The notes under the pieces are model-generated. The model was not told the origin of the DNA. It ran no database searches and saw nothing but the letters and a program-made list of their open reading frames with translations. A stretch of DNA of 48,643 bases from an uncultured Candidatus Saccharibacteria bacterium. Its GTDB lineage: Bacteria; Patescibacteriota; Minisyncoccia; Minisyncoccales; CG1-02-41-26. Each line of letters begins with the position of its first letter. Positions within the stretch are counted from its first letter, which is position 1. Position numbers and translations under genes: made by a program. The DNA lies in the NCBI GenBank assembly GCA_964651635.1, contig CAZYWT010000002.1, positions 1 to 48,643 on the forward strand. Reading direction: 5' to 3'. Below are positions 7,681 through 43,136 of the stretch, piece after piece.

Positions 7681-7710
7681 TTTGCTTTTTTTGGATTAGT
7701 TTTAATAAAT

Positions 7711-8688: not shown

Positions 8689-8692
8689 TTTT

Positions 8693-9985: not shown

Positions 9986-10156
9986 CGCTCACCCTTAATA
10001 AAAAAAAACAACCCGAAGTTATTTCCATCCCAACAAAAAGGAAGTAGAAACGGAATTACTTTTGGGAGAACCCAAGCCGAAGCTTAGGTATCCATTCAAA
10101 AATAATCCCTCTTAACTTCAGGTTGTCAGTTTTAATTGTAATATATTTATACATAA

Positions 10157-25876: not shown

Positions 25877-28800
25877 TTATCTTTTGGCGCATTTAACCTT
25901 AACAAATCCGTCTATATTTGCGTCTTCGCAAGTTAAGGCAAACGATTTCTCCCCTTGTCCTTCCAAGTCCTTTACCCCCGGAAGTTCTATTTGGCAAGAC
26001 GATTCTTTCCCCTCCAATTGATAATTTTTTGTATAAAAGTTTACATCTAACGAGTAGTTTTGTCCGCTGTAATTAACTTCGCAAACATTTTCTTCGCAAA
26101 AAACTTCCAATCCCGACGGGGCCTCGGGGCATTTTGTTTGAATATCTATCCATTCCCTATAATTCCATCTCTCGCAATCCAAAGAACAAAAATAGGGAAG
26201 AGAAGATATTGTGTAGGTCGCTCTTTCTCCCTCTTCTTTGTCGCATTTTACAGAATAAGATTTTTTAGAGCAATTTATCGCCAACTCGCCTTTTTCTATT
26301 TTTGTTTGGCAGTTTCCCGGGATAGTGGAATCTTCTTCTATTATTTCACAAGTGAGAGCCCCCGTATAAGTTATTATTTCTTCGTTGGCGTCTTGTCTTT
26401 CCGGAGGAGATATTTTATCCTCCAAATTTTGAGCCATTTTTTTCATCGGGTGTCTTAATATATAAACTAAATAACAATAAGGGCTGCTGAGCGGCTCAAC
26501 CGTGAGGGGCATATTAGAAATACAAAAAGGATACTTGCACAAACTTTGCCCGCAAAGGCAATTTTGGCTGGCAAAATGAACCGCCGTGGCAAGAGCCCAA
26601 ACGGCTTGCGCTTTTCTCTTTATTTTTTCTCCCTCATCCTTCAAAGATTTTATAGAATTATATTTTACAGGATAGATGTTAAATATATCGCGCAGTTTCA
26701 ACGCTCCTATTTTTATATCAAAATCTTTAACCCCTCTTCGGATTATATCTATTTGAGTTAAATTACTCCTTAAAACAGAAAAGTTAGACTCTATAATGGA
26801 GAACAAATTACCCACATCCGGGCAAACGGGACCGCCTCTGGGCGTTGTTATATCATTGCTTCCGGAAGCGGGAAGAGCGACGCAATCCAATGGTTGGAAG
26901 CTTAAACCTTCGCTATCCTCGTCTTTTTTGGCTCCTTCGGAAAGTTTTTCGGGGAGTTCTTTGAGCATTTTGATTAAAATCTGAGCATTCTCATAAGCTG
27001 TTTTGGCGTCGCTTATAGATGTTTCTATTCCGCCCATAAACAAAGAATAGGACCTAATTCCTAAAAGAATAGAGTAAATTGACATAACTCTGTTTAAGGG
27101 CTGTCTAATGTTAGTGTTTTCGAGGTTGCAAAAGAATTTTAATCTTTCAAGAGAGGCGGCGCTTTCTTCATCCCCGGAGAAAATATCTTTTTCTTGTCGC
27201 CAATTGTCGCCCCAGCCCAACCCCTCTCCTCTTATATGTTCAAGATGAAGGGCGATATCCTTACAAAGAGAAGGGTCTTGGGAGTGGAGGCAGTTTTCCT
27301 TCCAGGCCTCTTTTACGGCCACTATCTTGTCGCATTGCTCTTTTGCTCCCGCAAGTCCCGTCCACCCCTCGCAACTTTCTTTAAGTTCCATTATCTCTTC
27401 CTCTTCAAAAGGGCAAACATCCGACAAATAATCAGCTCTTTGGGTACAAGCGCTATAAAACGAGCGCTCGCTACCGCCCATATAAGTCATATTCCCCTCA
27501 CTAACGGCGCCGTCGCACACTTTAGAACTCCAAAAATGGACGGGGTCCTCACCCTGCTCTAAGTGGTAGGGGGCCTCCGGGTCGCATATTCCTCTAATTC
27601 TTTCTCCCAACCCCTCGTTTTCTGTTAAAAATGGTAAAAGTCGCTCCCCTGCCCATCTTAAATTGTTATTCTTATCAAGTTCTTTTACTCTTCTCTCGGC
27701 TTCCACAAGGGTTCTCTCCAGCGCTTCCACCCTTGAGCAAAGTTCCTCGTCTAATTTTTTGCTTCGCTTGTTATATTCAGGATAGATTTCCTCGTTACAT
27801 TTTTGAAGAGTTTCGCCGGGGTTGCTGCTCATCAAGACGGGGTCTATCGCTTGGCAACTCACAGCCATTTTATTGTTGCCCAATATCTTTGCCTCTAAAT
27901 AAGGGATGTCGTTTTGTCTCGTTTTCTCCAATTTTTCTTGAACGGTCTTTCCATTTGTTTTTTCTTTTAGGAAGTAGTAATCGGGATTTTCCGAAAGATT
28001 TAGGAGAGACGAAAATCCCGCCTTTAGCCCATATTCTTTATTTTCCAAATTAAAATAGCCGTTAAAAAGACTGTTAATAGCGCTGTATTTTTCATCCAAA
28101 AAAGAAACGGGGCTTTCCATAAATTTATCAAACCCCTCTCCCTCTATCCCCGCTTCTTCCATCCCCGCGTTGCCGGCGAAAATATCGTCCATTTTTGTTA
28201 TTTTAACTTCCGGAATATCCAAGGAAGGGTTTAGTTCTTTGGTTTTTTTTGCCACCTCGCTAATTTTCTCGGATAATTTTTCCAAAGAGAAAATGGATTT
28301 AGTAATCCGCTCCAATTCTCTAAAATCTTTATTAAAATTGTCTATTTCAAAACATCTAATTCTTTCCAGAAATCCATTAGGAGAGGCGGGGCAGTTATAG
28401 GGGCCGGTCGCTTCCCCTAAATTTGCCAAGAATTTATCTATATCGTCGGCTAAATTTTCCTCCGTTTGGTTTGCCAACCTTCGGGCGGCTTGAATGGCGC
28501 TGTAAAGTTCTTGGGACTTTTCTTTGGTGGCAAGGAGCAACTTTATATATTCATAAGCGTTTATATCCTCTCCCCTTTCCCAGATATTTACAATTTCCCG
28601 TATTATTTCTTTTATTTTTTCCAACTTATCGTTCTTCAATTTTAAGATATTGGAAGAAGGATTAGAGAGTTTTTTAATATCGTTTTGATATTTATTTATT
28701 TTTTGAACGGATAAGGGAGAATTTATAAAATAATTCAAAATTGGATGGGCTATTTTTGCTTTACTCCATGTGAGGTCGCCGAGGTTGCTCACGGAAAAAT

Positions 28801-30937
28801 CGGGGTTTATATATTCCCAAGCCAATATCCCCCCCATTTCCCTTAAAAAATTTAGCTCCGGGAGAGAAATTTCCATAAAATCTCGTTTTTGATTCCAATC
28901 CTGATAAAAAAGTTCAGAATCAAACTGGCAGTTTTCCCCCGCTATTTCTTTGGCCTCTTCCGTTGTGGGAGCTACTGTTTCCCCCTCTTCCTCTCGCCAA
29001 AATATCTTTTTGCCCTCGTCGTCTATGGGCAGATTTTTTGTTTGAGCCAAAAACTCTTGGAAGGAATTAAATATGTTAAAAAAGTTGTCATTAAACCAAA
29101 AATTTTTATCCGTTTGGGAGTTTTGGTCCCAATTACGCTTGTGAAACCAAAAAAAAGCAAGTTTTCTTAAAAGTTCCTCATTAGACATTGGCATGCCCGC
29201 CTTCCACACGGAAAATTTTTCAAAGGAGTTAAGGGCGTTAATTAAACCAAAAATAGAATCAGCCCCTGCCTTGAAAGACGCCAACCAATTTTCTTGCGGG
29301 TTGTTGGGAATGGCGCAGGAATAGTTGCAAGTATATTCATTTTCACAAGAAACGGCAACCACTCCCTTTACTTGAGGGCACGACATATTGTATTCTTCCG
29401 CCGTTTTTGGCAAAGGAATAGCGCAAGTCCCTCCTCCGCCCGAAGGAGCGCCCCCGCAACTTAACTGATAAGAATTGGTAGTTCCCACTCTCGCGATTTT
29501 ACATTGGTTGGGGTTTTTTTCTATTTTTGCTCCGCACTCGCTCTCGCAACTTACCTTTAATTCTCTGGGAAGTTCTTTGCAGGAAGCGGACTCTTCAAAA
29601 TGGGGTTCCCACCATTTTATATCTCCCTTCATAGGGAAATCGGCGCAATCCACAACGCAAGAATAATTGGGCGCCGAAGGTTTGGTTATAGTATAGACAA
29701 GATTTTCTTCCGAGCAAGAGATGTTATAGCTCGAAGAACCCGAACAATTTATTTTTAACAAATTGTTTTCTATGTAATATAAGCAGTCTCCTTCCATCCC
29801 CGCGCTTCCGGTAGTTTGGCAAGAAAATCCCGTTTTTTGGCATTCAAAATCCGTCGGCTCGTTATGCGCGTCCGTTGCTTCTTCGGAAATAATAAATTTA
29901 GTCGCCGAACGCAATCTTTTAGCAAAGCCCGACGGGCTTTCAAAGTGAGCCAAAAACAACTGAATTGCTTGGTCCAACTTTTCTCTTTTTTCTTTGTCTC
30001 CCTGGGAGGAGCTCCCTTCCGTTTCATAAAGAAAACTTATCCATTCCACCCTTTGAAGAGTTTTCATCATTTTTTCCGTCTCTCCCTTTATATCTCCGGC
30101 CGCCGAGAGCGCTTCCGATTTTGCTTGGCTATATCGGGAAAGATTTTCGCCATATTCGCTAAATCCCAACTCTCCCTCCTGGCCGATGGTTTTTATCACC
30201 TTTCCCAAAGAATCGACAAATGTCTTAAAATATTGAACTTGCGCGAAAAGATCGTCTATAAAATCTATGGCGTAATTTACCGTGGATAAAATTTGGTCGT
30301 AAACCTTTTTTAATTCGTTAAGTTGCTTGGCGATATTTGCCACTTTTCTTAGAAAATTAGCGATTCCCGTGGGAGCCAGCCAGTCCGCGATGGTTAAGAT
30401 ATTTACCGTGTAGGTTACTTGCCCCAAAGTAAAGGGGCAGTGGCTTCGGCAATTTTTTAAGAAAGAGCATTCCGTTAGCGGGTCGGTTTTATTAAACATT
30501 TTTTTGGCAAAATAAGCGATATTGGAAGCGGCTCTTTGGATAGAAATAAATTCTCCGCAGGCGCGGGCAAGAGCGTATCTTTCTTCTCGGCTCATCTTTT
30601 CGGCTTCTTCGGGGGTGATAATTCGCAATTCGCACTTTTCGGGGATATAAGGAGCGACTAAAAGAGGAAACCCTTTTTCGTCGGTTGTATCTACTTGGCT
30701 TTCAGCTTCAAAAAAATTTTCTTTATTGAATGGGTGTTTGTCCGACACCCGCTTTATTTTCCAGTCACCAACGGCCAAATATCCATCCTCGGAAATATAA
30801 ATTTCCTCCGGGAGAGGAATTCCGTCCAAAATGTCTCCTATAAATTTCCAGATATTAAAAGCGTCGGCTCTTTGCGGGCTTATAAGAATAACAACCCCTA
30901 TAACCCCTATTAAAATTGTTTTTATCAGTTTTTTCAT
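25877..30937 (-). CDS. Giant (1686 aa) secreted cysteine-rich protein with a duplicated Cys-module
   Basis: A signal peptide MKKLIKTILIGVIGVVILISPQRADA is present and there is no further TM helix. Two homologous ~170-aa Cys modules lie at about nt 29300-29845 and 25880-26368. Long helical regions lie between them. Confidence 0.8.
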   Translation of the reverse strand: MKKLIKTILIGVIGVVILISPQRADAFNIWKFIGDILDGIPLPEEIYISEDGYLAVGDWKIKRVSDKHPFNKENFFEAESQVDTTDEKGFPLLVAPYIPEKCELRIITPEEAEKMSREERYALARACGEFISIQRAASNIAYFAKKMFNKTDPLTECSFLKNCRSHCPFTLGQVTYTVNILTIADWLAPTGIANFLRKVANIAKQLNELKKVYDQILSTVNYAIDFIDDLFAQVQYFKTFVDSLGKVIKTIGQEGELGFSEYGENLSRYSQAKSEALSAAGDIKGETEKMMKTLQRVEWISFLYETEGSSSQGDKEKREKLDQAIQLFLAHFESPSGFAKRLRSATKFIISEEATDAHNEPTDFECQKTGFSCQTTGSAGMEGDCLYYIENNLLKINCSGSSSYNISCSEENLVYTITKPSAPNYSCVVDCADFPMKGDIKWWEPHFEESASCKELPRELKVSCESECGAKIEKNPNQCKIARVGTTNSYQLSCGGAPSGGGGTCAIPLPKTAEEYNMSCPQVKGVVAVSCENEYTCNYSCAIPNNPQENWLASFKAGADSIFGLINALNSFEKFSVWKAGMPMSNEELLRKLAFFWFHKRNWDQNSQTDKNFWFNDNFFNIFNSFQEFLAQTKNLPIDDEGKKIFWREEEGETVAPTTEEAKEIAGENCQFDSELFYQDWNQKRDFMEISLPELNFLREMGGILAWEYINPDFSVSNLGDLTWSKAKIAHPILNYFINSPLSVQKINKYQNDIKKLSNPSSNILKLKNDKLEKIKEIIREIVNIWERGEDINAYEYIKLLLATKEKSQELYSAIQAARRLANQTEENLADDIDKFLANLGEATGPYNCPASPNGFLERIRCFEIDNFNKDFRELERITKSIFSLEKLSEKISEVAKKTKELNPSLDIPEVKITKMDDIFAGNAGMEEAGIEGEGFDKFMESPVSFLDEKYSAINSLFNGYFNLENKEYGLKAGFSSLLNLSENPDYYFLKEKTNGKTVQEKLEKTRQNDIPYLEAKILGNNKMAVSCQAIDPVLMSSNPGETLQKCNEEIYPEYNKRSKKLDEELCSRVEALERTLVEAERRVKELDKNNNLRWAGERLLPFLTENEGLGERIRGICDPEAPYHLEQGEDPVHFWSSKVCDGAVSEGNMTYMGGSERSFYSACTQRADYLSDVCPFEEEEIMELKESCEGWTGLAGAKEQCDKIVAVKEAWKENCLHSQDPSLCKDIALHLEHIRGEGLGWGDNWRQEKDIFSGDEESAASLERLKFFCNLENTNIRQPLNRVMSIYSILLGIRSYSLFMGGIETSISDAKTAYENAQILIKMLKELPEKLSEGAKKDEDSEGLSFQPLDCVALPASGSNDITTPRGGPVCPDVGNLFSIIESNFSVLRSNLTQIDIIRRGVKDFDIKIGALKLRDIFNIYPVKYNSIKSLKDEGEKIKRKAQAVWALATAVHFASQNCLCGQSLCKYPFCISNMPLTVEPLSSPYCYLVYILRHPMKKMAQNLEDKISPPERQDANEEIITYTGALTCEIIEEDSTIPGNCQTKIEKGELAINCSKKSYSVKCDKEEGERATYTISSLPYFCSLDCERWNYREWIDIQTKCPEAPSGLEVFCEENVCEVNYSGQNYSLDVNFYTKNYQLEGKESSCQIELPGVKDLEGQGEKSFALTCEDANIDGFVKVKCAKR

Positions 30938-30939
30938 AA

Positions 30940-33900
30940 TTAGTCGCTAAATATGGGCGAATTGGAATTTATTGGCAGTCCCGTTTTTATAGTTAAAGTG
31001 AGCATTTTCAAAAAGTCGGTTAATTTGTTGGATATACAAGTTAAAAGGTCTACGCAACATTGGTCCGTTTCTTCATTATAATAACTTCCCTGACAACATA
31101 AAACCATTTCCTCCTCATCCTCTGTCGTTTTTTCTTTTCTCTCATCTCCCTCTCTCTCGCATTTTGCTTTCGGCTCGGCGTTTTTGGCGCGGGCAACGGC
31201 GTAAGTTTGGCGACAGATATTGCAACTTTCATCATAGCAGCAAAATACCCCGTCATCTCGCTCGTCTCTTTCTTCCCCTTTTTCTATGTCGCAGGACTCG
31301 CTTGTTTCTATTTCTCTACACCTGTCTTTACATACCAACGCCGCTCCCAAATTACAGCATTGTTTAGTTGTTTTGTTGTAGATTTCTTTTTCTCCCTGAC
31401 AACTCTCGTTATTTTTTTCCTCGGGGGTGGCGTCTTTGCACTTCCCCGCTAATCTGTCGGCTATGTCGTCGCCTATCTCGTCTGTCGCCCCCATTCCCAA
31501 CGATTGAATGAGCCAATTTACGCCCCTGGTGGGATATTCAATAAAAGCGGTGTCTAAACTACTCCTAATAGTTCCTTGAACGGAATCCACCGCCTCGTTA
31601 ACAGAATCCTTAATATCTTCCCATTTGCCGTAAATTTCATAGACGAATTTGGTAATTCCCGCGGCTTTGCCGATTGTGTCTATATAAGGATTATTTAACT
31701 CCGGTATTTTTGTTTCTGCGATATAATCAATTGGGGACCTAAAGAGAGCCCACTCTTTATTTAGGGGGTCTGTCAAATAATGGGCGGCGATATCTGTCGG
31801 GGTTTTTGCCAAAACTTCTTGAATTTCTTTCCATTTAGAAACATCCATAGATTTTTGAAGCCAATTTTCTTTACCCATTTTCTTAAATATCATATAAATT
31901 AAACTTTTCCCATTTAATAGATAACTAATTGGGTCTTTGGAGAGCGCTTCTCCCAGCTTGTTGGCTTGTTTGGCAAATTCTTGTTTTTGCTCTTCACTCC
32001 AACCAGGGCCTCCCACATCTTTCGCTTTTACCCTCATCAAAAGAGAAGAAATTTTGCCCCTAAAAAGAGCATCTAAAAGGTTGTTGAGCGGTTCCGGTCT
32101 TTCGTAATTTTCCAATTTTGTCCACATCAGAGAAAAAATAGTGTTGTAGGGGTCTTTTATATAATTTATAAGTCGTTTTTCTATTCCTAAACTTTCTTCC
32201 AATGTTTGAGTTAAAATCCGGCAGGTTATAAAAAGGTTTTTAAGATTTTCGCCGACATCTCCCTCTTTTTCTTCTGCCAGATAAGTTCTCTCCACCAAAG
32301 AGCAAGCCCCGCTTCCCAAAAGCCAATAAATGTTTTTAGCCAACATATTGCTCCCCTCGCAAGGGCTTCCCGTCAATCCTTCCACCGCCCCCAAACAAGG
32401 AGTGGTGAGCGCTTCTTCCACCGTCCCTCCCGAACTAAACCAAGCGGTAAAAGATTGGAGCCCCCGTTCTAATTTTTTTATTTGTCCCTCTTCCATCGCG
32501 TCCGCTTGCGTGGCGATATGAAGCATTTCTTCCCTCCCCATTCCTCTATCCAGGGCAAGTTTTTGTATTTCTCCTTGAACCCTCTTGTCTGTAAAAGTGG
32601 CAAAGAGCCACAGATAAATTTCCTGGGACTTTTCTTTGTCTTTTTTTTCTATATCTCCAAAGTTATGCTCTATTTGGTCGTTAAAAATAGTGTAGGCGGC
32701 GGAATTTTCAATTAGAGCGGCGCAAGCGTCCTCTCCCCGGTCGATTAAATCCTTTTTTTCTTCAGAGAGAGTTAAATCTCTTAAAACGCAGGGCGAAATT
32801 CCTTGCTCGGAGCATAATTTTTCTTTTTTAATTTCTAATTGTTGGCAGTAGGTGTTTATGAAGTCGGATAAAATTAATCCTTGCGCTCTGTCCCAACCTT
32901 TCAGAGGGTTCTGGCAGGCGTAGTTTAAGAAATAACAATAACCCTTTTCCCCGGCTGGGTCGCTTGGGTAGGGCAGAAGTCCGGCCGTTAGGTCGAAACT
33001 CCACTCCTTGCAATCGTAATCAATAAAACTAATTTCTCCGCAGATAAGTTCTTTGGGTGTTGCTTTTAGCAGTTTTCTCATAACTTCGGGGCTTAAATTG
33101 AGTTCGGGCCAAATTAACTGGGCCACCGTTTTGTTTAAATGTTTGTCTATATCGGCGTTTTTAAAAACTTGGTCGAATAGTTTCATAATTTCGGTGTTTA
33201 ACGCGGTTGCTACTTTTTCGCCAAACTTTCCGTTTTCGGAGAGTTGGTCTAATAAACTTTGATGAAGTTCTCTGTCTATGCCACAGGCCGCCTTCCCCAC
33301 TTCTTCGCTTACTTCTATTTTTTCGTTGTAAATAGTATAACTTCCTCCCGCTTCTTTTTTGGCGCAAATATCGGATAAGATTTGTTCAACGCTGGAGCCC
33401 AAATAGGCCGAAATTTGAGCGGGGAGCGCTTCTCTAACCGAAGAGTTTAGAAAATTGTGTATTTCCTCTTGAAAGGTGGAGAGTTGGAAAAGATACGGGG
33501 CAAACGGCTTCAAAATAGAATCTTCCACCCAAACTTGAGCGTATTTAGTTAAAGTGTGGGCGGCGGTTCGCAAAAGCGCCACCATAAATTCCTCGCCAAA
33601 GTTTACCAAAAATTCAACCGCTCCCTTTCCCCAGCGAGCGAGATTTTCTCTGGTGGGGGCGAGCCCGCCAAGGTTTAAATTTTTACAACTCTTACACACT
33701 TCTCCGCCTATTTGGTCCCAGCAATAGCCGGCGCCTCGGCAAAGCGCTTCCTGGGTAAAATCAGATTCAAAAGCTCCAACATCTCCGTCCTTTTTGCTGC
33801 GAACAAGAGCGTTCGCAATCCCTCTACCCGAAGTAAAGTCGCTTATTTCCCGGGGGGTGGCTTTGTAGCATCTTTCGTTGGTATAGTTGTAAAAATATCC

Positions 33901-35979
33901 TCGCGAAAAATCTTCCCAACATTTTTCCGGCTCCGAGAATTCTTTAAAGATATTAGGGTTGTTTTCCTTATAATCCCCGATAAGGTCAAGGGCTGGCTTG
34001 GTAATTTGGTAAGCGAGTTCCCAAACCATATTTTCTATTTGCTTGTCTATCCTCTCTTTTAGGTCTTTTAATTGGGCTTCCAAAAATTTATCTGTTTTTT
34101 CTAAGGGGATTAAAGCAAAATCGGGCAGAACTTGAGAGACCTTCTTTTTTAAGTTTTCTTTCAAAAAGGGAATTTGCTTGTCCAAAGATTTAGTGAGAGC
34201 GCCTTTCATCGCTATATCTAAAACATCCACTAAATCGTTTTCTATAATACTCTTTAATTCTTTAGAAAAATTAAAGTCCAAAACGGAACTTTTCAACGCT
34301 TTGGATATTTTCTCCGGCAGTTGCTCCATAATTGGAGCGGTGAGAGTGTTTGCCACCAAATTAGACAAAAAATCGGGCGGTATTTCTTTTTTCTCGCAGT
34401 TTTCTTTAACGCATTCCTCGTATTTTTCCTCGTCCTCGCTTTTCTCCGGGCATCCTTCTTCCATCTCTTCTTTTCTATAAGAAGCTAAACATTTTTCCAC
34501 ATAATATTTATCTGATTTTTGAACAAGGTCTTTGTTGAGCCGCTCTCTAAAAGATTGAGCGTATTCTTCCGAATTCATCTGAAAAACATCCAGTAAATAA
34601 TTATCTATCCCTTCATCTAAGGCTTTTTGGGTAAGGTTGGCGTAATAAGAAGTGTCTATCGCAAACTCCCCTTCTCCAAAAGCGTCCTCCAAACATTCCT
34701 CCGCCACTCGCTCTATCTCTTCAACTCCCACCCGCAAAAGAACGCTCACAAGGTTAATGGCTAAACTTTCCTCCATTGTTTCTTGGTTCTCCCCTTTTTG
34801 GCTTAAAGGGAAATACTTTCCGCTCAAGGGAGCGTATATGGTAAAATCATCGGGGGTTCCCGCTTCAAAGAGAGTTTGTTCTTTTTGGGAAGGATGTTTT
34901 TGAATGTCTATATCTTCGTATTGATTTCTCCAATTTTCCAACTCTCTATAATAATCAGTTTGAGTATATACATTTATTAAATTTGTGTCTAAAAATTCAG
35001 ACACTTTTAACTTTAGCGTTTTCTCTAAAAATCCGATTTCCTCGCTTGATATTTTGTAATTTAGCACCTTTAATCCCCCCCACTCCCCTATTAAATTTTT
35101 TCTTTTCTCTCTCGCTAGTTCCAGGTTGCAATTTTCCGAGTTTCCGCATCCCTCTCCTTCGGCGTCGCACTGATTTTCGCAAGTTTCTTCCTCGTTGCTC
35201 ATTAGCGCTTTTCCCTCGGCGCAAACTCCCTTGCTCTCTTTCGTTGCTATGTGGGATTGCGACATTCCGCAACCGCAATTTTCTAAAATAGCGTTGATTT
35301 CTTCGGAAATTTCGATTACGCTCAACATCCTGCCTTCCGCTTCCAAAAAAGGGATTTCGGCTCTAAAAAATTCGCTTCTCTCATCGCCGCTCTCGGTGAG
35401 GGCTTTTTCTACATATTCTTTTACTGCTTCATCGTTCATGCTTGCGAGCGTCATTTTTTTATCTAAATAGTCCAACGCTTCATCTATTTGCTCTCCGCCG
35501 GAAGAGTAAGCCAAAATTGCCTTCTCGCCCGATGACGCTATCTCGGGCAAAACGGGGGGCGGGATTTTTTTGAACTCTGTTTGTAAAACTAAAATCTGCG
35601 GGTTTACAAGAGACAGGATTAAATAAGAGCCCAAAACAATCACAAATCCCAAAAGAGCGTTTTGCATTCTTTGGTTGGCGATATTTCGCAGAGTTGGTTT
35701 GACGCCGGAGAGAAGATAAAGAACCCCGCCGGCTATAAACACGGCTAACACTATTCCGGTGGCTATAAAATAGAAAAGAATTAAAAAGTAGCTTCCGTAG
35801 GCAGACAACCTTTCATCCACCTTTAACGCGCCATCGCTTATTTTTTCCTCTATTGTGTTGGGGGTATCTACCCCGGGTAATTTAGGATAAGAAACATTCA
35901 AAGCGTTGGCGGAAAATATAGGCAAAAATAAGGCGAAAATTAAAAAAATAAGAAATAAAATATTTAGTTTTTTAGGCAT
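30940..35979 (-). CDS. Giant (1679 aa) protein: N-terminal VirB2/TrbC-type pilin module fused to a ~1540-aa Cys-rich extension
   Basis: It has a signal peptide (...LPIFSANA) and TM1 (YFLILFYFIATGIVLAVFIAGGVLYLL). The loop is SGVKPTLRNIANQRMQN and TM2 is ALLGFVIVLGSYLILSLVNPQ. The C-terminal tail is rich in CC/CxxC (CCNLGAALVC, FCCYDESCNIC, LCCQGSYYNEETDQCC). Confidence 0.7.
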   Translation of the reverse strand: MPKKLNILFLIFLIFALFLPIFSANALNVSYPKLPGVDTPNTIEEKISDGALKVDERLSAYGSYFLILFYFIATGIVLAVFIAGGVLYLLSGVKPTLRNIANQRMQNALLGFVIVLGSYLILSLVNPQILVLQTEFKKIPPPVLPEIASSGEKAILAYSSGGEQIDEALDYLDKKMTLASMNDEAVKEYVEKALTESGDERSEFFRAEIPFLEAEGRMLSVIEISEEINAILENCGCGMSQSHIATKESKGVCAEGKALMSNEEETCENQCDAEGEGCGNSENCNLELAREKRKNLIGEWGGLKVLNYKISSEEIGFLEKTLKLKVSEFLDTNLINVYTQTDYYRELENWRNQYEDIDIQKHPSQKEQTLFEAGTPDDFTIYAPLSGKYFPLSQKGENQETMEESLAINLVSVLLRVGVEEIERVAEECLEDAFGEGEFAIDTSYYANLTQKALDEGIDNYLLDVFQMNSEEYAQSFRERLNKDLVQKSDKYYVEKCLASYRKEEMEEGCPEKSEDEEKYEECVKENCEKKEIPPDFLSNLVANTLTAPIMEQLPEKISKALKSSVLDFNFSKELKSIIENDLVDVLDIAMKGALTKSLDKQIPFLKENLKKKVSQVLPDFALIPLEKTDKFLEAQLKDLKERIDKQIENMVWELAYQITKPALDLIGDYKENNPNIFKEFSEPEKCWEDFSRGYFYNYTNERCYKATPREISDFTSGRGIANALVRSKKDGDVGAFESDFTQEALCRGAGYCWDQIGGEVCKSCKNLNLGGLAPTRENLARWGKGAVEFLVNFGEEFMVALLRTAAHTLTKYAQVWVEDSILKPFAPYLFQLSTFQEEIHNFLNSSVREALPAQISAYLGSSVEQILSDICAKKEAGGSYTIYNEKIEVSEEVGKAACGIDRELHQSLLDQLSENGKFGEKVATALNTEIMKLFDQVFKNADIDKHLNKTVAQLIWPELNLSPEVMRKLLKATPKELICGEISFIDYDCKEWSFDLTAGLLPYPSDPAGEKGYCYFLNYACQNPLKGWDRAQGLILSDFINTYCQQLEIKKEKLCSEQGISPCVLRDLTLSEEKKDLIDRGEDACAALIENSAAYTIFNDQIEHNFGDIEKKDKEKSQEIYLWLFATFTDKRVQGEIQKLALDRGMGREEMLHIATQADAMEEGQIKKLERGLQSFTAWFSSGGTVEEALTTPCLGAVEGLTGSPCEGSNMLAKNIYWLLGSGACSLVERTYLAEEKEGDVGENLKNLFITCRILTQTLEESLGIEKRLINYIKDPYNTIFSLMWTKLENYERPEPLNNLLDALFRGKISSLLMRVKAKDVGGPGWSEEQKQEFAKQANKLGEALSKDPISYLLNGKSLIYMIFKKMGKENWLQKSMDVSKWKEIQEVLAKTPTDIAAHYLTDPLNKEWALFRSPIDYIAETKIPELNNPYIDTIGKAAGITKFVYEIYGKWEDIKDSVNEAVDSVQGTIRSSLDTAFIEYPTRGVNWLIQSLGMGATDEIGDDIADRLAGKCKDATPEEKNNESCQGEKEIYNKTTKQCCNLGAALVCKDRCREIETSESCDIEKGEERDERDDGVFCCYDESCNICRQTYAVARAKNAEPKAKCEREGDERKEKTTEDEEEMVLCCQGSYYNEETDQCCVDLLTCISNKLTDFLKMLTLTIKTGLPINSNSPIFSD

Positions 35980-36391
35980 ATTTTTTCATTGCGTTTTTCA
36001 TTCCTATGGTCCATCCGAACCAAAGGGAACCCACAATGGGCAAGGGCTCCAGCAAAAAACTCCAGCCCTTTAAGGGGACTATAAATCTTTGCGTTTCTAT
36101 GGAAGCGACAATGGTTAAAGACAAAAATGCCACAAGGTCGAGAAAAAAAGACAGGATTGTTCCAACTACCCCTACATAGGGTATTAGTTGGATTATTTCG
36201 GCGGGGATTTCCAGCAAATCAAATATAAAAGCGAGGGTTATGGCTATTACGGGTCCATCTTCTCTTAATCGCGACGATTTGTCTTTTTTTGCCAAACTGC
36301 TCGCTTCTTTCCAACGCTCTTTTCCCTTGCCATAGAGTTCTTTTCCTTTTTGTTTGGCTTTTTGGTAAACTTGGCTTAATCCGGGACTCAT
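35972..36391 (-). CDS. Small membrane protein of the T4SS-like operon, unknown function
   Basis: 139 aa with a basic N-terminus followed by 3 predicted TM helices. It overlaps both neighbours (4 nt and 8 nt). Confidence 0.6.
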   Translation of the reverse strand: MSPGLSQVYQKAKQKGKELYGKGKERWKEASSLAKKDKSSRLREDGPVIAITLAFIFDLLEIPAEIIQLIPYVGVVGTILSFFLDLVAFLSLTIVASIETQRFIVPLKGWSFLLEPLPIVGSLWFGWTIGMKNAMKKYA

Positions 36392-38178
36392 AATTTTTTC
36401 TTTTTCTTTTTAATTTTTTGAATTTCTTCCGGGGAAGAAGTTATAATCTGGTCTTCGGTGTAAGAGGCCGTTACTTTTAAGGCGACTCTCTTTCGGCCGG
36501 CGATAAATATCCCTTCTCCCACATCGGATTCCAAAAGCAAGTATTTTTCTCTTTCCGTTAAATTAAAAGTTTTTTTGGCCGTGTCTATTGTGGCCGGCGA
36601 TTGTTTTAAGAGAATTTGGAGAGAGGAGTTTGTTATAATCGGCTTTCCGTAATCAGACCTCATAAAATCGGATATGTCTTGGGTTATAGTGGAGACCCCC
36701 AACCAGTATTTTCTTGACCTTTTACAAATCCCAAAAAGAAAGGACGCTCCGTCTTCCGTTTTCATAACCCACCAGGCCTCGTCCACTAAAAGTATTCTTT
36801 TTTTCAATTCTTTTCTGATGCTGTTCCAAATATAACGAAGCACCATATACATAGCCATCGGGCGAAGTTCATCTTCCATATCTCTAATGCCAAAAACCAC
36901 TAAACTTTTGTCCATAGATATGTTGGTGGGGTTGTTAAAAAAATTGGCGTAACTGCCGGTAGTAAATTTTCCCACTCTTGAAACAAGAGATTCAGCCCCC
37001 TCCATAGTGGAGAGAACACTTTCAAAATCCGACATAAGGGGCGTTTTTTCTTCCCAAGTTTCAGGGCTTGTTTGGGGAGTTATGTCTTTGGCCGCGTAAG
37101 TTTCGGTAATTGCCCTGTCTATAATAGAGTCCTCTTCCGAGGTTAGTCCCCCCAGCATAATCCGAAAAAGTCCCACCAGGTTTATTATATTGGTTCTCAA
37201 AACATCTTCGGCGTCCTCGTCTTCGGTTGGTTTGGGCACATCAAAAGGATTAAGATGATTGTCGGAAGTGAGCGATATCTTAAAATAAGAGCCGCCCACG
37301 GCGGCGGCGAGCCACTGGTATTCGTTTTCCGGGTCCATTATAATTCCGTCAACTCCTTGCATTAAATAGCGGAGCATTTCCAGTTTTGCCATATAGCTTT
37401 TTCCCGAACCTGCCTTGGCAAAAATACAAGTGTTAGCGTTCTCCAGCGTAAATCTGTCAAAAAGAACCAAAGAATTATTGTGTCTGTTTACTCCGTAGAG
37501 AATTCCCTCGTTGGCGCTTAAATCCGGGGAAACAAAAGGGAAAATACTGGAAAGGGGCTCTGTGTTCATGGGAGTGTGAACGCCTATTTTGTCTAACCCG
37601 TAAGGAGCGGTGGAGACAAAACCCTGCTCCGATTTTAAGAGAGTTGGTTTTAAGTAGATAAGACGGGACTCAAAAATAGAACGAAGTTTTGTTTCCAACT
37701 CTCGCAGATGCGCTTTGCTGTCGCCGTATATAGTGATGAAAACTCCTAATTGAAAGACCCTCTCTTCGGCTCTTTGGAGCGAATCCCGCAAATTTTCTAT
37801 ATCTTGATAAGCCGTTTCCAAAGTCGGGTCTCTAATTAGCCCCTTTTCTGTTCTTTCCATAAGTTCCGCTTGAATGTTGGTGAGTTTTTTTCGCAGTTGT
37901 CTTAAAATTTCTCCCGATTCCACGGGGTGAATGTGAAAAGCAATGTCCAGCGGGTAATTTATATTTATAGCCGGCGATATCCAGCCGGTGGTTAAATATC
38001 GGGGGTAAGAAAAAACAAAAAATGTTTTCAAAAACTTCTCTCCCAGTTTTATGTAATCCTGCGATATTTCAACCGAAGACGGAGCGATAATGTCGCCTAC
38101 CGATATCGCTCTTTCCCTGTAATCAATTCCCTCTATTGTTCCCTTGTCTTTTTTTGTAAAAGGAAGGTTAATATTCAT
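36388..38178 (-). CDS. virB4: VirB4/TraC-class T4SS ATPase
   Basis: 596 aa. Walker A is IFAKAGSGKSY and Walker B is RILLVDEAWWVM. The N-terminal domain carries YPRYLTTGWISPAI, and the C-terminal part carries QSPATID/ERE. Confidence 0.85.
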   Translation of the reverse strand: MNINLPFTKKDKGTIEGIDYRERAISVGDIIAPSSVEISQDYIKLGEKFLKTFFVFSYPRYLTTGWISPAININYPLDIAFHIHPVESGEILRQLRKKLTNIQAELMERTEKGLIRDPTLETAYQDIENLRDSLQRAEERVFQLGVFITIYGDSKAHLRELETKLRSIFESRLIYLKPTLLKSEQGFVSTAPYGLDKIGVHTPMNTEPLSSIFPFVSPDLSANEGILYGVNRHNNSLVLFDRFTLENANTCIFAKAGSGKSYMAKLEMLRYLMQGVDGIIMDPENEYQWLAAAVGGSYFKISLTSDNHLNPFDVPKPTEDEDAEDVLRTNIINLVGLFRIMLGGLTSEEDSIIDRAITETYAAKDITPQTSPETWEEKTPLMSDFESVLSTMEGAESLVSRVGKFTTGSYANFFNNPTNISMDKSLVVFGIRDMEDELRPMAMYMVLRYIWNSIRKELKKRILLVDEAWWVMKTEDGASFLFGICKRSRKYWLGVSTITQDISDFMRSDYGKPIITNSSLQILLKQSPATIDTAKKTFNLTEREKYLLLESDVGEGIFIAGRKRVALKVTASYTEDQIITSSPEEIQKIKKKKKKL

Positions 38179-38181
38179 AAT

Positions 38182-38844
38182 TTAATCCAAAAGTTCGGGC
38201 AATATCTCCGGATAATACCCAAATTCCGATTGTCTTGGGTGGTGGAGTGCCCAAAAAAGTTCAATGAGTTCCGGGGTGGTGAGAGGGACGGCGTTTAATC
38301 CGCATCGCCGCAGGCCTATGGCGGCATATTCCATCCTTTGCCAAAGTTGGTCGCGAGCTCTTTGAAAATTTTCTTTGCCTAATCCAAAGTATTTATCTTC
38401 TCCGCCTCCTCCCTTGAAAATGTTTTGGAGAAGTCCTCCGCTGACCCCTATTGTTTCATTTAGGGTAAAAGGGACTACCACGAAAAACTCTTTTTTCATA
38501 ATCGTTCCTTTTTTAATCAACTTTTCCACAAATTTTCTATAGCCGCTTATTTGAACTTTCAAAAGTTCCGATTTTTGCTTTTCTTCCAACTCTTTTAGTT
38601 TGTCAAAATAGCCGGTGATATTTAAGCGGCGGGATTGAACTATTATTTGAGTGGAAAAATCAAGAGAGTTTAAGAAACTTTGGAATTGATAAGTAGTGGC
38701 TTTTTGCTCATCTTCGGATTTTAGGTCAAAATTCACGGAAGAGGTGAGTAAAACTCCTCGCAGGGACTTGTTTTTTAGAATTAGAGTTCCGTCTTTTATC
38801 CCTTCAAATTTTAAGAAATTTTGGGCGGGGTTGTTACTAAACAT
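38182..38844 (-). CDS. Stand-alone protein resembling the non-ATPase N-terminal region of Gram-positive-type VirB4 proteins
   Basis: 220 aa with no P-loop. The pattern FEGIKDGTLILKNKSLRGVLLTSSVNFDLKSEDEQKATTYQFQSFLNSLDFSTQIIVQSRRLNI matches my recollection of PrgJ/Orf16-type VirB4 N-termini. This is inference. Confidence 0.4.
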   Translation of the reverse strand: MFSNNPAQNFLKFEGIKDGTLILKNKSLRGVLLTSSVNFDLKSEDEQKATTYQFQSFLNSLDFSTQIIVQSRRLNITGYFDKLKELEEKQKSELLKVQISGYRKFVEKLIKKGTIMKKEFFVVVPFTLNETIGVSGGLLQNIFKGGGGEDKYFGLGKENFQRARDQLWQRMEYAAIGLRRCGLNAVPLTTPELIELFWALHHPRQSEFGYYPEILPELLD

Positions 38845-38847
38845 AAA

Positions 38848-39264
38848 TTATTGTTTGTTTTGTTTCCACTCTAATTGAGAGGAAAGTTCTTTTATGCGAC
38901 TGCCGGGAGAAATTTTTAAGGGTTCTCGTTCTTTTTCTTCCTCTTTGGGTTTTTGATATTTTATTCTCAAAGAGTGAGGCGGAACATCTTTCTTTTCCCA
39001 AAAATATCTTTTGGCGGAAGTAAAAAAACTAAAATATTGAGCGATAAGTTGAGGTATGGTGTAGCCCTCTACTCGGACAAAAAGAAAAAGCAAGACAACC
39101 GTAACGGTGGCGAAAAAGATAACATAAAAAGCGGTCGGCGGGACTATATAATATAGCCCAAAAAGGACACCTCCCACTATCCCCAAAATAATTAACTGGC
39201 GAAAAGTGAGAAGATTAAAAAACTTTGTTTGATGCTCTAAGAATTTTGGAACTTTATATCGCAT
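38848..39264 (-). CDS. PrgI-family (VirB3-like) T4SS membrane protein
   Basis: The N-terminus MRYKVPKFLEHQTKFFNLLTFRQLIILGIVGG is followed by two TM helices. It lies directly upstream of the VirB4 genes, which is the canonical VirB3-VirB4 order. Confidence 0.7.
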   Translation of the reverse strand: MRYKVPKFLEHQTKFFNLLTFRQLIILGIVGGVLFGLYYIVPPTAFYVIFFATVTVVLLFLFVRVEGYTIPQLIAQYFSFFTSAKRYFWEKKDVPPHSLRIKYQKPKEEEKEREPLKISPGSRIKELSSQLEWKQNKQ

Positions 39265-39453: not shown

Positions 39454-40503
39454 TTATTTGGATTTTTTCTTAAAAATTTTGAAAAAACCCTTGGCAAGAT
39501 TGCCAATACAACCGCCAATTGTGGTTCCCGCTTTCATCTCCTTCATCTCCTTCATCTCCGTATTCAGTTTTCTGTTTTTGCGTTCCAGCCGCTTCCTTTT
39601 CTGGGCAAGTTTTTCCGCTTCCATTTCCATTTCCACAATCCGAGACCTTAATTGGTCTCTTTTTCTCCGCGCCTTTCGCAGGGCGGAGGCCGCCTCTCTT
39701 CTGCGGCTGGCGGAAATTTTTTCCGCTTCCGCTTCCGCTCCTTGAACGAGCTCCAAAGAGCGTTCCAATACGAACCGTATTGTCCGAGCTGATTCGCTCG
39801 GACTCGGCCCGCTTCCGCTTCCATCTCCGCTTTCTCCACTTTCGTCTCCATCTTCTAACGCTTTTTCTTTCTTTTTTTCTTTTTTTTCTTTCTTTTTTTC
39901 TTTCTTTTTTTCTTTTTTTTCTTTCTTTTTTTCTTTTTTTTCTTTTTTTTTTTTTTCTTTTTCCTTGTTCCATTCCCCATCCCCCTTCGGAAATGGCGAC
40001 CATTTCTTCCATGTGGTCGTCTTCCGGTAGAATCTCGGCCACTGTTTTTTAACATAAGAATAACAGAGCCAGTAACCTACGGGAATCCCCGCGTAGAGTC
40101 CAAATACAGCGAAAAAATAATCCGCAGTTAGGACATCCGCCGAAACCCACACGGCGAGAATGGCCGCTACCGCGGTCCTGGCGCCGACCCACTCTACAAT
40201 TTCTCGAATGACTCGGCCAGGTCCCCTCCCTGTCCCGCCGAATATGTTCACGAATCCTTCGTGAACAGCGAGGGGAATGGCGAGGACTGTTGCCAGCCCC
40301 GCCAGAATATGCCTACCCCACTTCGTGTTATTTAACACGAGCAGGGAGACGAGGATAGCGACAACGATAGTAAATAATCGTATGTCGCTATCCAACAGAA
40401 TGATTCCGGGTACTGTTCTAAATAAATAGAAATAATAGTACCCGGAACTTGCCAGTGTTGCCGTAAGCAATAGCCCCGCCACGACATTTACAAGTTTCCT
40501 CAT
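39454..40503 (-). CDS. Polytopic membrane protein with poly-(K/E) tract and coiled-coil tail; GC-rich cassette
   Basis: 349 aa. The N-terminal ~170 aa form about 5 TM helices encoded by visibly GC-rich DNA. They are followed by KEKEKKKKEKKEKKKEKKEKKKEKKKEKKEKKKEK, a Gly/Ser/Asp linker, a coiled coil and the tail GTTIGGCIGNLAKGFFKIF. Confidence 0.7.
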   Translation of the reverse strand: MRKLVNVVAGLLLTATLASSGYYYFYLFRTVPGIILLDSDIRLFTIVVAILVSLLVLNNTKWGRHILAGLATVLAIPLAVHEGFVNIFGGTGRGPGRVIREIVEWVGARTAVAAILAVWVSADVLTADYFFAVFGLYAGIPVGYWLCYSYVKKQWPRFYRKTTTWKKWSPFPKGDGEWNKEKEKKKKEKKEKKKEKKEKKKEKKKEKKEKKKEKALEDGDESGESGDGSGSGPSPSESARTIRFVLERSLELVQGAEAEAEKISASRRREAASALRKARRKRDQLRSRIVEMEMEAEKLAQKRKRLERKNRKLNTEMKEMKEMKAGTTIGGCIGNLAKGFFKIFKKKSK

Positions 40504-41033: not shown

Positions 41034-43136
41034 TTAAGCCGCTTTTTTTCTCCCCCCCGAACTCCCGCTGGAAGAATTTCCGCCCGTTTTTGTTTTTCCG
41101 TGTTTTTGAGCGCCGCGAGAACTACTTTGTCCTCCCTTTTTTGTGGTCCTTCCGCTCGCGCCCGTTGTTTTTTGCGAAACTGGCGGCCCGCCGAGCAAGG
41201 CGTTCATTTTTTCTCTTATAGCTTCCTCTTCTTCTTTGGTTATAGTTTCATCTCCTATTCTTTTCTCGTAATCCCTCCATATAGGGGACTGTTTTATGGC
41301 TTCTTTTTGGGCTTTTGCCCCCATCGTTCCAAATATCTTTAATTTATTTTTATTTAAGCGCTTGGCGATGCTGTTTAATTTTAAGATGCTCGGGGGCAAA
41401 TCCAATAAACTTCTCCCCGACATTTTTTCCACCTCTTCTCCTATCATTTTATCTTTTACCGCTCTTCTCGCTTTTACCCCGGCGTTATGTTCCGGGGTTC
41501 CCGAATCCATTAAATTTTGTTTTTCTTCCTTTACCCTTCTGCCATATTCTTTCCCTTTCACAAAAGGAGAAAGGTCTGGCCTTTTTGAGGAGAGTGAGCT
41601 CAAGTCCCCTCCAAGCCCTTGGACTTCTCTGATAATCTTTCTCTCTCTTTTTTGGTCGCCCAAATCAAACTCCCCTCTTTTTGTAAGTGTTTCCGCCAGC
41701 GCTATTCTTTCTTTTTTGGCTCGGGTTGTGGCGGCTGGCCCTTTCAACTTTTCCTTAATTGTTTGCGACTCCATAGAGTTGACGGCGCCTCGCATGTCTT
41801 GGTCGGGCGCCCATTTTTTAGTTCTTCTTGTGTAATATTTAGAGGACGAAACGCCCAGCATTTTACTTCCCGTTTCCGCTATTGCTTGCCTTCCTTTTTC
41901 TCTCCCCGCCCTTGTGACGACGCCACGGAAAGCGCCCTTAAGTCCTTCTTTTTTAGAGCCGGTTTCCTGAAACCCCTCTCGGAAGCCGGCCACCGCGCCC
42001 CCTATGGCGCCGGTTGCGCCGCTGGCGGCTTTTTTGCCCCTCTTGGTCGTAAATTTACCCGCCTTGGCGGCTCCCGTTTTAAGTCCTTTTGTTGCCATTC
42101 CGGTGGCTTTTGCCAATGTCGCCACTCCCTTGCTCATATAAACGGCTCCAAAAGCCATAAGCCCCAGCGCCATGCCATACAGAAAGAGGATGGGCAAAAC
42201 ATCCCCCCCTTCCTCGGGATATTCAGTCATATTAACTTGTTCTATCATTGCTTGGGCTAAATAAATCAAAAAAGCGTATCCGACCACTTTGATTACATAC
42301 TTAAAAAACTCATTCCACCACTGCGTAAAATATTTTCTTGTCTGGTCGAAGATATAGGCGAAAAGAGCCAGCGGAGAAATAATAGTTAAAAGTGTGATGG
42401 CGATATGCCTCACCACAAAGAGATAAGCGAATTGCAACAAAACCTTTACCAAAAAGACCGTAAACCCGCCTAAAAGAATTATGCTTATTATATTTTTTAT
42501 CATTTTTGCCCCGCCCCCCGCACTTGCCATATCCTTCCAATCTATTTCTTCGGCGGCTAAATCAAAGGCGGTTTCAAATCTTTCCCACTTAATTTGAGAT
42601 GTAAAAAACCTTGTGGCGGCGTTTGCTACATCCACAAACAACCCGCAAATTGCCGGGGTAAAGTTTATAATAAGGGCTATTATAATTAGCAAAGAAAAGG
42701 ATTTTTGGGCGCCAAACTTGTTTTTATCAAGGGCTGTAAGTATCCCGATAATCGCCAGTCCCAAAATAAACAAAATGTTTACAATATCTCTTATAAGGGT
42801 CCAGCCGATTTTTAGGACGGGGTTATTGGCGGGGTTGGTGCTGGAAAAATTACTCAAAACCAAAATATCGCTCACCGCCCATGTCGAAATTCCCACCGTC
42901 AAATGAACTACCGCTTTTAAGACCCTCATTACGGCCCATTCCAAAGCGCTGCCTATACCCTCTAAAAACTTATTCGTTCCCTTGGTTATTAATTTATTTA
43001 TTATTTCTCTCTCCCCTACACCTGTATAAAAGTAAGGCACTCGAGCGCTGGTTTTAGCGGGGATAAAAATAAAAGAAAAACCGATTAAAACTATAAAAAA
43101 GGAAATTAAGGATTTTTGGAAAATTGTTCTCTTCAT
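41034..43136 (-). CDS. VirB6/TrbL-like polytopic membrane protein with a long basic Gly/Lys/Ser/Thr-rich C-terminal tail
   Basis: 700 aa. A signal or TM segment (SLISFFIVLIGFSFIFIPAKTSA) is followed by about 6 further TM helices up to about aa 345. A ~350-aa hydrophilic tail then ends in GGNSSSGSSGGRKKAA. The family assignment rests on architecture and context. Confidence 0.5.
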   Translation of the reverse strand: MKRTIFQKSLISFFIVLIGFSFIFIPAKTSARVPYFYTGVGEREIINKLITKGTNKFLEGIGSALEWAVMRVLKAVVHLTVGISTWAVSDILVLSNFSSTNPANNPVLKIGWTLIRDIVNILFILGLAIIGILTALDKNKFGAQKSFSLLIIIALIINFTPAICGLFVDVANAATRFFTSQIKWERFETAFDLAAEEIDWKDMASAGGGAKMIKNIISIILLGGFTVFLVKVLLQFAYLFVVRHIAITLLTIISPLALFAYIFDQTRKYFTQWWNEFFKYVIKVVGYAFLIYLAQAMIEQVNMTEYPEEGGDVLPILFLYGMALGLMAFGAVYMSKGVATLAKATGMATKGLKTGAAKAGKFTTKRGKKAASGATGAIGGAVAGFREGFQETGSKKEGLKGAFRGVVTRAGREKGRQAIAETGSKMLGVSSSKYYTRRTKKWAPDQDMRGAVNSMESQTIKEKLKGPAATTRAKKERIALAETLTKRGEFDLGDQKRERKIIREVQGLGGDLSSLSSKRPDLSPFVKGKEYGRRVKEEKQNLMDSGTPEHNAGVKARRAVKDKMIGEEVEKMSGRSLLDLPPSILKLNSIAKRLNKNKLKIFGTMGAKAQKEAIKQSPIWRDYEKRIGDETITKEEEEAIREKMNALLGGPPVSQKTTGASGRTTKKGGQSSSRGAQKHGKTKTGGNSSSGSSGGRKKAA

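Follow-up and report, generated by a model that had tools for sequence, protein, structure and literature searches.

A PF18895-type pilin module joined to a giant cysteine-rich passenger in the type IV secretion operon of an uncultured Candidatus Saccharibacteria bacterium

What does a pilin-like membrane hairpin do at the front of a protein of 1679 amino acids (aa)? The question is raised by GIANT1, a gene on the minus strand (30940..35979) of contig CAZYWT010000002.1 from an uncultured Candidatus Saccharibacteria bacterium (assembly GCA_964651635.1). The stretch analysed, here called the window, comprises 48,643 nucleotides and also encodes components of a type IV secretion system (T4SS). 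A first-pass annotation had described GIANT1 as a VirB2-type pilin module covalently fused to a very large cysteine-rich extension. Based on the list of open reading frames (ORFs) and a full-length alignment with 22 relatives, we describe it here as a modular pilin-family protein. GIANT1 is a genuine, single and conserved gene, and in our judgement it is probably a modular PF18895-family component of the T4SS whose passenger lies outside the cell and contributes to a host-contact structure tethered at the secretion system.

The GIANT1 gene and its family

The ORF of GIANT1 starts with ATG and is single and uninterrupted, with no stop or frame break; the computed mass of the protein is 189 kDa and its isoelectric point 4.7. 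Every string quoted in the first-pass annotation was present in the translation, that is, the leader ending in SANA, the first transmembrane helix (TM1), the basic loop, the second transmembrane helix (TM2) and the cysteine clusters. The 'megadalton-scale' size given there for the passenger was wrong by about 6-fold, as the extension after TM2 comprises 1544 aa and 174.5 kDa.

A profile of the N-terminal module (133 positions) was built from three proteins, GIANT1, its relative P0002 and Pil594, a second fusion encoded in the same operon. When it was run exhaustively with HMMER against 1.84 billion cluster representatives, 20,667 proteins matched at E ≤ 1e-3. Among the best 150 of these, a list skewed toward relatives of fused modules, 27 were longer than 1000 aa (22 longer than 1600 aa), 110 measured 260–1000 aa and 13 were shorter than 260 aa; about 50 belonged to a class of 530–670 aa. 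Termination shortly after TM2, cited in the first-pass annotation as the canonical state of pilins, is thus not the rule for the closest relatives of this module. This changes the view of the 'pilin' family, since stand-alone small pilins form a minority among the 150 closest module relatives, and fusions to domains of ~600 aa, to domains of ~2000 aa or to further pilin modules are common.

Twenty-two relatives of 1687–2320 aa were combined with GIANT1 into a set of 23 sequences, referred to below as the giants. Those among the best 150 module matches carry the module at residues ~1–140. The giants were retrieved only through the exhaustive search with the module profile; searches of a word-indexed database of 5.8 billion proteins, with full-length GIANT1 or with a profile of the 23 sequences, returned GIANT1 itself, P0002 and one spurious match. 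Homologous fusions of varying length, proposed in the first-pass annotation as something to look for, therefore number at least 22.

All 22 relatives align along the entire length of GIANT1 at 22–34% identity, with an alignment occupancy of at least 0.77 in each 50-residue block; 23 cysteines are invariant and ~15 nearly so. The alignment of GIANT1 with P0002 (2146 aa, 22% identity), for instance, starts at the signal peptide and reaches the C-terminal cysteine domain. GIANT1 is essentially the minimal version of this family, its relatives carrying insertions. The same architecture, found from end to end in at least 22 diverged giants, is far beyond what chance would produce.

The gene neighborhood is conserved as well. 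By BLASTP, five loci (L001, L002, L008, L009 and L010) show the same order VirB6-PrgI-TraC_N-VirB4-GIANT1-GIANT2-Cys359-Pil594 as far as their flanks reach, L002 being a 224-kb contig of a metagenome-assembled genome. GIANT1 stands right after virB4 in all three loci in which the upstream side is available (L001, L002 and L010). A locus search with five sequences recovered one genome locus and three metagenome loci.

The first-pass annotation had considered that a sequencing or assembly frameshift might have joined a short pilin gene to an adjacent large gene. Beyond the formal point that the assembly derives from an uncultured organism and that only one record of the exact protein exists, nothing was found in favor of this. 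The junction and both flanks are kept in at least 22 diverged giants from different samples and in the five loci; together with the intact frame, the P0002 alignment, the alignment of all giants and the conserved synteny across many independent assemblies refute such an artefact, to which we give practically no chance.

Identity of the N-terminal module

GIANT1 contains just three hydrophobic segments (aa 1–31, 60–95 and 105–132, Kyte-Doolittle), and the remaining ~1545 aa contain none. By hydropathy and the alignment of the giants, the protein begins with a Sec-type signal peptide (aa 1–26, 35902..35979; this and all other features of the gene lie on the minus strand), which reads PIFSANA at its end and so terminates in A-N-A. 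At this position the aligned giants show FALA or VFA followed by LEL.YP..PG, from which we infer that the leader is cleaved just before the conserved motif L-x-(L/V)-x-Y-P-x-(I/L)-P-G. The following segment (aa 27–61, 35797..35901), predicted to be extracellular, contains the motif Y31-P32..P35-G36 and a short helix at residues 40–48, modelled by AlphaFold2 (AF2) with a predicted local distance difference test score (pLDDT) of ~80. Y31, P32 and G36 are nearly invariant across the 23 giants, and the net charge of the segment ranges from −7 to +1.

The membrane hairpin comes next. TM1 was assigned by hydropathy to aa 62–90 (35710..35796; YFLILFYFIATGIVLAVFIAGGVLYLL, aa 64–90), with G85 and Y88 invariant among the 23 giants. 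A short basic loop of about aa 91–107 (35662..35709, SGVKPTLRNIANQRMQN), predicted to be cytoplasmic, carries K93, R97 and R103 and has a net charge of +1 to +4 in every one of the 23 giants. TM2 (about aa 107–128, 35596..35661, ALLGFVIVLGSYLILSLVNPQ) ends in LVNPQ and bears the family-wide signature LGSYLIL..(I/V)NP(Q/D/E); L110, G111, I114, L122, N126 and P127 are invariant in the giants and invariant or nearly so in short PF18895 pilins. AF2, run on an alignment of 24 sequences, predicted a helical hairpin of residues 54–93 and 95–125 with pLDDT 80–90. In the alignment of the giants the module is at least as conserved as the passenger and ranks with the best-conserved parts of GIANT1.

Which family does this hairpin belong to? 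The three-module profile matched PF18895-annotated proteins in a 5.8-billion-sequence database with E-values from 2.8e-18 to 1e-5, and an hhalign profile–profile comparison of the module with eight PF18895-annotated proteins gave a probability of 99.4% (E 3.5e-21, 96 columns). Direct PF18895 matches at E ≤ 0.01 were obtained for seven of the 23 giants (best E 3.8e-6). The orthologues from L002 match PF18895 too, the Pil594 orthologue of this locus with 28.9 bits, above the Pfam gathering threshold (GA). Residues G85, G111, S118-Y119-L120, L122, N126 and P127 form a module signature in common with PF18895 members. On these sequence comparisons, the homology of the module with PF18895 'T4SS_pilin' proteins can be regarded as firm despite the sub-threshold score of GIANT1 itself. 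The pilin-family match sought in the first-pass annotation was thus found as homology with PF18895, but not as a significant Pfam score of the protein's own.

The NCBIfam model NF045849 ('pilin-like conjugal transfer protein', from integrative and conjugative elements (ICEs) of Mycoplasma) matched 14 of the 16 members of the module alignment, with a best E-value of 5.3e-8; the module of GIANT1 itself did not reach E 0.1 in this comparison. The match suggests that the pilin-like gene is a heritage of monoderm MPF_FATA systems and was not borrowed from a diderm VirB2, and it fits the monoderm ancestry of the VirB4 encoded in the window. A 2025 survey had left open whether the gene is of monoderm origin or stems from diderm VirB2 (PMC12102498). 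The proteins of the Mycoplasma 'Mbov_0395 family' described by NF045849 resemble the module in belonging to a monoderm, MPF_FATA-like system, and the VirB4 of the window together with its split-off N-terminal pieces matches the Mbov_0397 ICE ATPase model. However, NF045849 is a model of ~80 positions for a small protein, and the ICE proteins, unlike GIANT1, have no giant passenger.

The closest described counterparts are the PF18895 pilins of Patescibacteria (Wang et al., 2023, PMC10633639; Quinonero-Coronel et al., 2025, PMC12102498), whose module is homologous to that of GIANT1. Both share the signal peptide, the YP..PG motif, two TM helices and NP(Q/D/E)L, and both are encoded beside virB4 and near dnaA and ksgA. 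While the described pilins are treated as small proteins encoded in arrays of 2–11 genes, GIANT1 carries a conserved passenger of 1544 aa in an operon without a stand-alone pilin. Patescibacteria T4SSs with PF18895 pilins near oriC were thus already known (2023–2025); new is the giant-passenger form as a conserved core component of the operon. Giant or modular pilin fusions were not mentioned in the literature that we searched, whose coverage is incomplete, and domain-architecture databases may list such proteins without comment.

To our knowledge, no monoderm T4SS other than that of Patescibacteria has pilin-like genes, and monoderm T4SSs, such as that of the GIANT1 host, normally lack VirB2. 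Canonical VirB2/TrbC pilins (PF04956) and F-type TraA resemble GIANT1 in overall layout, with a cleaved leader, two hydrophobic helices linked by a short basic loop, and N- and C-termini that both face the trans side of the membrane, and canonical VirB2/TrbC and GIANT1 are each encoded together with VirB3, VirB4 and VirB6 homologues. In contrast to GIANT1 with its additional 1544 residues, canonical pilins measure ~70–100 aa when mature, end a few residues past helix 2 and frequently undergo cyclisation or trimming. No PF04956 match was obtained with Pfam for GIANT1 or any of the 23 giants.

A further comparison is offered by modular type IV pilins, e.g., PilB and PilC of Streptococcus sanguinis, in which a pilin module bears a grafted C-terminal functional domain. 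They are alike in that a small N-terminal polymerisation or anchoring module displays a functional (adhesive) domain outside the cell. They differ in belonging to an unrelated machine and fold and in having a class III leader, whereas GIANT1 has a Sec-type A-x-A leader and a passenger ~5–10 times larger. Accordingly, GIANT1 had no match to type IV pilus or pilin families of Pfam, its leader ends in the Sec-type A-N-A and is not that of a class III prepilin (G|F/M-x-x-x-E), and it has two TM helices instead of a single N-terminal hydrophobic one.

Topology, tether and fold of the passenger

With a signal peptide and two TM helices in succession, the C-terminus comes to lie outside the cell, no matter whether the leader is cleaved. 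With the positive loop in 23 of 23 giants and the charge of the N-terminal segment, the positive-inside rule is satisfied. All 49 cysteines of GIANT1 lie within the extension; the extensions of the giants contain 49–82, mostly at invariant positions, and such conserved cysteines are the pattern expected for disulfides in an exported protein. Taken together, the sequence features strongly suggest an N-out, loop-in, C-out topology for GIANT1, with the whole passenger extracytoplasmic and ~20 conserved disulfides. The extracellular location proposed in the first-pass annotation, as opposed to a cytoplasmic one, was upheld by these features. Plain signal peptides and a similarly high cysteine content are also features of the co-operonic proteins GIANT2 and Cys359.

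Proteins in which three to six tandem modules are followed by a cysteine-rich tail exist as well. P0018 (640 aa) and P0039 (786 aa) are such 'poly-pilins', with three and six PF18895-type hairpin modules, respectively, and resemble covalent versions of the pilin gene arrays of Patescibacteria. These polyproteins are topologically simple only if every module is N-out/C-out.

The passenger (aa 153–1679, 30943..35523), predicted to be extracellular, is mostly alpha-helical in the AF2 models. Its cysteine motifs include ENCGCG (residues 233–238), CENQCDAEGEGCGNSENC (267–284), CCNLGAALVCKDRC (1541–1554), FCCYDESCNICRQ and LCCQGSYYNEETDQCCVD. The model of aa 480–1679, computed from 23 sequences, was nearly all-alpha (mean pLDDT 67, predicted TM-score (pTM) 0.43), with very long helices at about aa 620–673, 777–844 and 1442–1511. 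Near the C-terminus a cysteine-dense domain rich in beta-strands (aa ~1514–1648, 31036..31440; model residues 1035–1165) is predicted, followed by a conserved terminal helix with the motif CC.TV..CI..KF...L. In this region C1514, C1541, C1542, C1550, C1586, C1607, C1641, C1642 and C1648 are invariant among the giants. A kinship of the C-terminal cysteine-rich domain with the short cysteine-rich tails of small PF18895 pilins was considered and discarded as not significant (best E 0.3). The sequence of the passenger had no match in Pfam, NCBIfam, PHROGs or the PDB.

Extensions of a different kind were seen in P0053, P0128 and P0138 (1124–1436 aa), where the module precedes a long array of ~30-aa repeats with 'NP..L' or 'P..L..V' motifs and a terminal cysteine-rich domain. 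The module has thus been combined with several unrelated passengers.

Is the passenger permanently attached? Module and passenger are linked by a Pro-rich, flexible tether (aa ~129–152, 35524..35595, QILVLQTEFKKIPPPVLPEIASSGEK), of which residues 132–150 are disordered in the AF2 model (pLDDT ~40). Just C-terminal of it, the block of aa 151–200 shows the lowest conservation and occupancy of the giant alignment. The tether would be the candidate processing site if the hairpin served only as an export handle, inserting and presenting a protein whose passenger is then cut off at aa ~130–152 and released as an effector, a toxin or a soluble adhesin. The poorly conserved, disordered and Pro-rich nature of the tether speaks for this explanation, as does the length of the short family members, which end ~10–15 residues past NP(Q/D/E)L (e.g., P0003 with 125 aa), so that cleavage at the tether would leave a pilin of normal length. 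It is also general knowledge that canonical VirB2/TrbC pilins undergo C-terminal processing. On the other side, no conserved cleavage motif was found in the tether across the giants, the operon contains no protease gene, and the passenger is without a toxin or enzyme signature. Conservation of the module is as high in the giants as in the short pilins, and permanent attachment would fit this as well. We therefore regard release of the passenger, which the first-pass annotation had named as its alternative, as rather unlikely.

The secretion operon and possible functions of GIANT1

In the direction of transcription, the tightly spaced minus-strand operon encodes VirB6, a Lys/Glu-rich protein, PrgI, TraC_N, VirB4, a small TM protein, GIANT1, GIANT2, Cys359 and Pil594. 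The T4SS cluster has ksgA (RrnaAD) as its neighbor at one end and yidC/jag, dnaA and dnaN at the opposite end, and the remaining genes of the window are housekeeping genes. These flanks and the housekeeping genes indicate that the locus is chromosomal and near oriC. No relaxase or type IV coupling protein family was found in the 29 ORFs scanned with Pfam, all long ORFs included. This setting agrees with the published description of Patescibacteria T4SSs, in which virB4 is found close to dnaA, dnaN and ksgA, the components are MPF_FATA-like, the pilins VirB2-like and a relaxase is usually missing (PMC12102498). These systems are essential for epibiotic growth (PMC12102498; PMC10633639; PMC12857230).

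How could GIANT1 act in such a system? As the module is among the best-conserved segments and keeps the signature residues of the family, it is probably functional and not a passive anchor. Like the short PF18895 proteins, it would probably bind the VirB6/VirB3/VirB4 machine or be assembled upon it. The docked module would then tether a long, acidic, largely alpha-helical structure of 175 kDa at the distal end of the T4SS, and the passenger, joined by the exported products of three further genes of the operon (GIANT2, Cys359 and Pil594), would form an extracellular host-contact or adhesion apparatus. We consider a tethered host-contact structure of this sort the most probable role of GIANT1, with reservations that arise from the following results.

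Several observations weigh against such a role. Against Pfam PF18895, GIANT1 itself scored only 15.3 bits (E 0.022, aa 68–122), below the GA of 26.6. In hhalign the module showed no relationship to five plasmid MPF_T VirB2/TrbC pilins (probability 2.6%), and no solved pilin was found among its PDB sequence matches at E ≤ 10. A link to canonical VirB2 was thus rejected at the sequence level, also against the sequences of solved structures, and the term 'VirB2-type' of the first-pass annotation stands for a layout and a family label, not for demonstrated homology. Foldseek with the 520-aa N-terminal AF2 model gave no PDB match at E ≤ 0.001 and hence no structural support for a pilin fold; the sole hairpin-like match was ATP synthase subunit c (TMt 0.57, E 8). 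For the passenger, Foldseek returned no match at E ≤ 0.001, with TM scores ≤ 0.15, when both AF2 models were compared with the PDB and the C-terminal model with BFVD, a test limited by the medium confidence of the models (pLDDT 67, pTM 0.40–0.43). In the structural comparison suggested in the first-pass annotation, a hairpin was thus predicted for the module, but neither AF2 model had a significant structural match. No adhesin, enzyme or toxin domain was recognisable in the passenger with Pfam, NCBIfam, PHROGs, the PDB or Foldseek, so that host contact is deduced from location and context only. The 48.6-kb window holds no stand-alone short pilin gene, which speaks against GIANT1 simply decorating a conventional pilus encoded nearby. 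Finally, a review credits Patescibacteria with only the 'potential to elaborate conjugative pili', none having been seen experimentally (PMC12857230).

Part of this evidence also bears on another explanation, according to which PF18895 modules are integral-membrane subunits of the T4SS channel and not polymerising pilins, and the passenger serves as an envelope-spanning scaffold, a stalk or a frame for remodelling the bacterium's own wall, without direct host contact. The 'pilin' label, lacking VirB2 sequence similarity and experimental support, and the missing stand-alone pilin would fit such a function. Most close relatives of the module carry large extensions, which are hard to fit into a tightly packed homopolymeric filament, and monoderm T4SSs need wall-spanning components, a part played by PrgK/PrgL-type proteins. 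Nevertheless, the passenger showed no domain resembling VirB8/PrgL, PrgK or a hydrolase, and a helical protein of 175 kDa with a partner of 190 kDa would seem to exceed what the thin envelope of these Candidate Phyla Radiation bacteria needs. We judge an envelope scaffold to be improbable, somewhat more so than release of the passenger.

Going beyond the host-contact role favored here, the PF18895 hairpin might be a general module for T4SS-dependent display and assembly, with the giants forming a built-in tip complex in the place of VirB5 and a PrgB-like adhesin. A ring of the giant fusion (e.g., five copies), the first component to be placed on the VirB6 platform, would make up the tip of a pilus- or needle-like structure, to which GIANT2, Cys359 and Pil594 would add further layers. 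Such proteins would constitute a new class of 'modular conjugative-type pilins' and would physically bridge the envelope of the host, or pierce it, in the course of epibiotic parasitism. This is a speculative extension that we hold only tentatively.

In the role proposed for GIANT1, namely contact with the target cell at the distal end of the T4SS, it resembles PrgB-type adhesins and VirB5 tip proteins. Sortase anchors PrgB, while VirB5 is small, helical and soluble; neither is fused to a pilin module, and GIANT1 shows no sequence or fold similarity to either. In the T4SS loci of Patescibacteria 'No adhesins, such as PrgB, were detected' (PMC12102498). The GIANT1 operon is a concrete candidate for the host-contact apparatus that published surveys of Patescibacteria did not find, in the form of a conserved four-gene module after virB4 that encodes two pilin-module fusions (one of 189 kDa) and two secreted cysteine-rich partners. 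The fusion suggests how host-dependent, ultra-small bacteria might build the host-contacting end of their T4SS.

The partners downstream of GIANT1 are all encoded on the minus strand. GIANT2 (25877..30937, 1686 aa, 56 Cys), whose ATG lies 2 nt past the stop of GIANT1, has a signal peptide only and is a secreted, conserved partner, found beside GIANT1 in four other loci. A paralogy of GIANT1 and GIANT2 was rejected (best E 1.3). GIANT2 contains an internal duplication of a cysteine-rich domain of ~150 aa (aa ~365–545 and ~1525–1686, BLASTP E 2e-7) and had weak matches to tail/tape-measure PHROGs (E 7e-4). It is followed by the second secreted, conserved partner, Cys359 (24779..25858, 359 aa, 5.8% Cys), and by the pilin-module fusion Pil594 (22977..24761, 594 aa), assigned by PF18895 (E 3e-4), the module alignment and synteny. 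Pil594 consists of the module at aa ~1–120 and an extension of ~470 aa without a match in Pfam, NCBIfam or PHROG; module fusions of ~600 aa like this one constitute a large family by themselves.

The genes upstream of GIANT1, likewise on the minus strand, start with a VirB6/TrbL-like polytopic membrane protein (41034..43136; PF04610, 34.2 bits, GA 25.9). The Lys/Glu-rich membrane protein of 349 aa (39454..40503), which has no family assignment, begins with TM helices; these precede a low-complexity tract of extreme (KKEKKE)n composition, a linker of Ser, Gly and Asp and, finally, a charged tail that resembles a coiled coil. It is followed by a PrgI/VirB3-like protein (38848..39264; PF12666, 35.9 bits, GA 27) and a TrsD/TraC-like protein (38182..38844), a split-off N-terminal part of VirB4 with N-terminal matches to NF041427 and NF045975. 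Its NF041427 match (E 4e-5, 23.5 bits) lies far under the 200-bit cutoff; the L001 orthologue was assigned to the TraC-like family PF26593. The VirB4-type ATPase (36388..38178) is CD1110/MPF_FATA-like (NF045971, 362 bits with a cutoff of 325; PF19044, E 2.9e-24). Between virB4 and GIANT1 lies the gene of a small membrane protein of 139 aa (35972..36391), the stop of which overlaps the start of GIANT1 (ATGCCTAA). At its position L002 has a small ORF of 119 aa (8579–8938, plus strand); the position is conserved, but similarity between the sequences was undetectable by BLAST at E 1e-5.

Two peculiarities were noted in L001. Its VirB4 orthologue (6206–9997, plus strand, 1263 aa) contains an intein with a LAGLIDADG endonuclease, and a 124-aa gene of the 23S_rRNA_IVP family is inserted between GIANT1 and GIANT2.

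Elsewhere in the window, a plus-strand region (7711–11838) contains an unassigned ORF of 325 aa followed by a PilB/GspE-type secretion ATPase (T2SSE, E 3e-113), as well as a secreted protein of 221 aa with a Lamin-tail domain downstream of ruvB. These genes, ~25 kb from the T4SS, may have functions related to type IV pili or DNA uptake.

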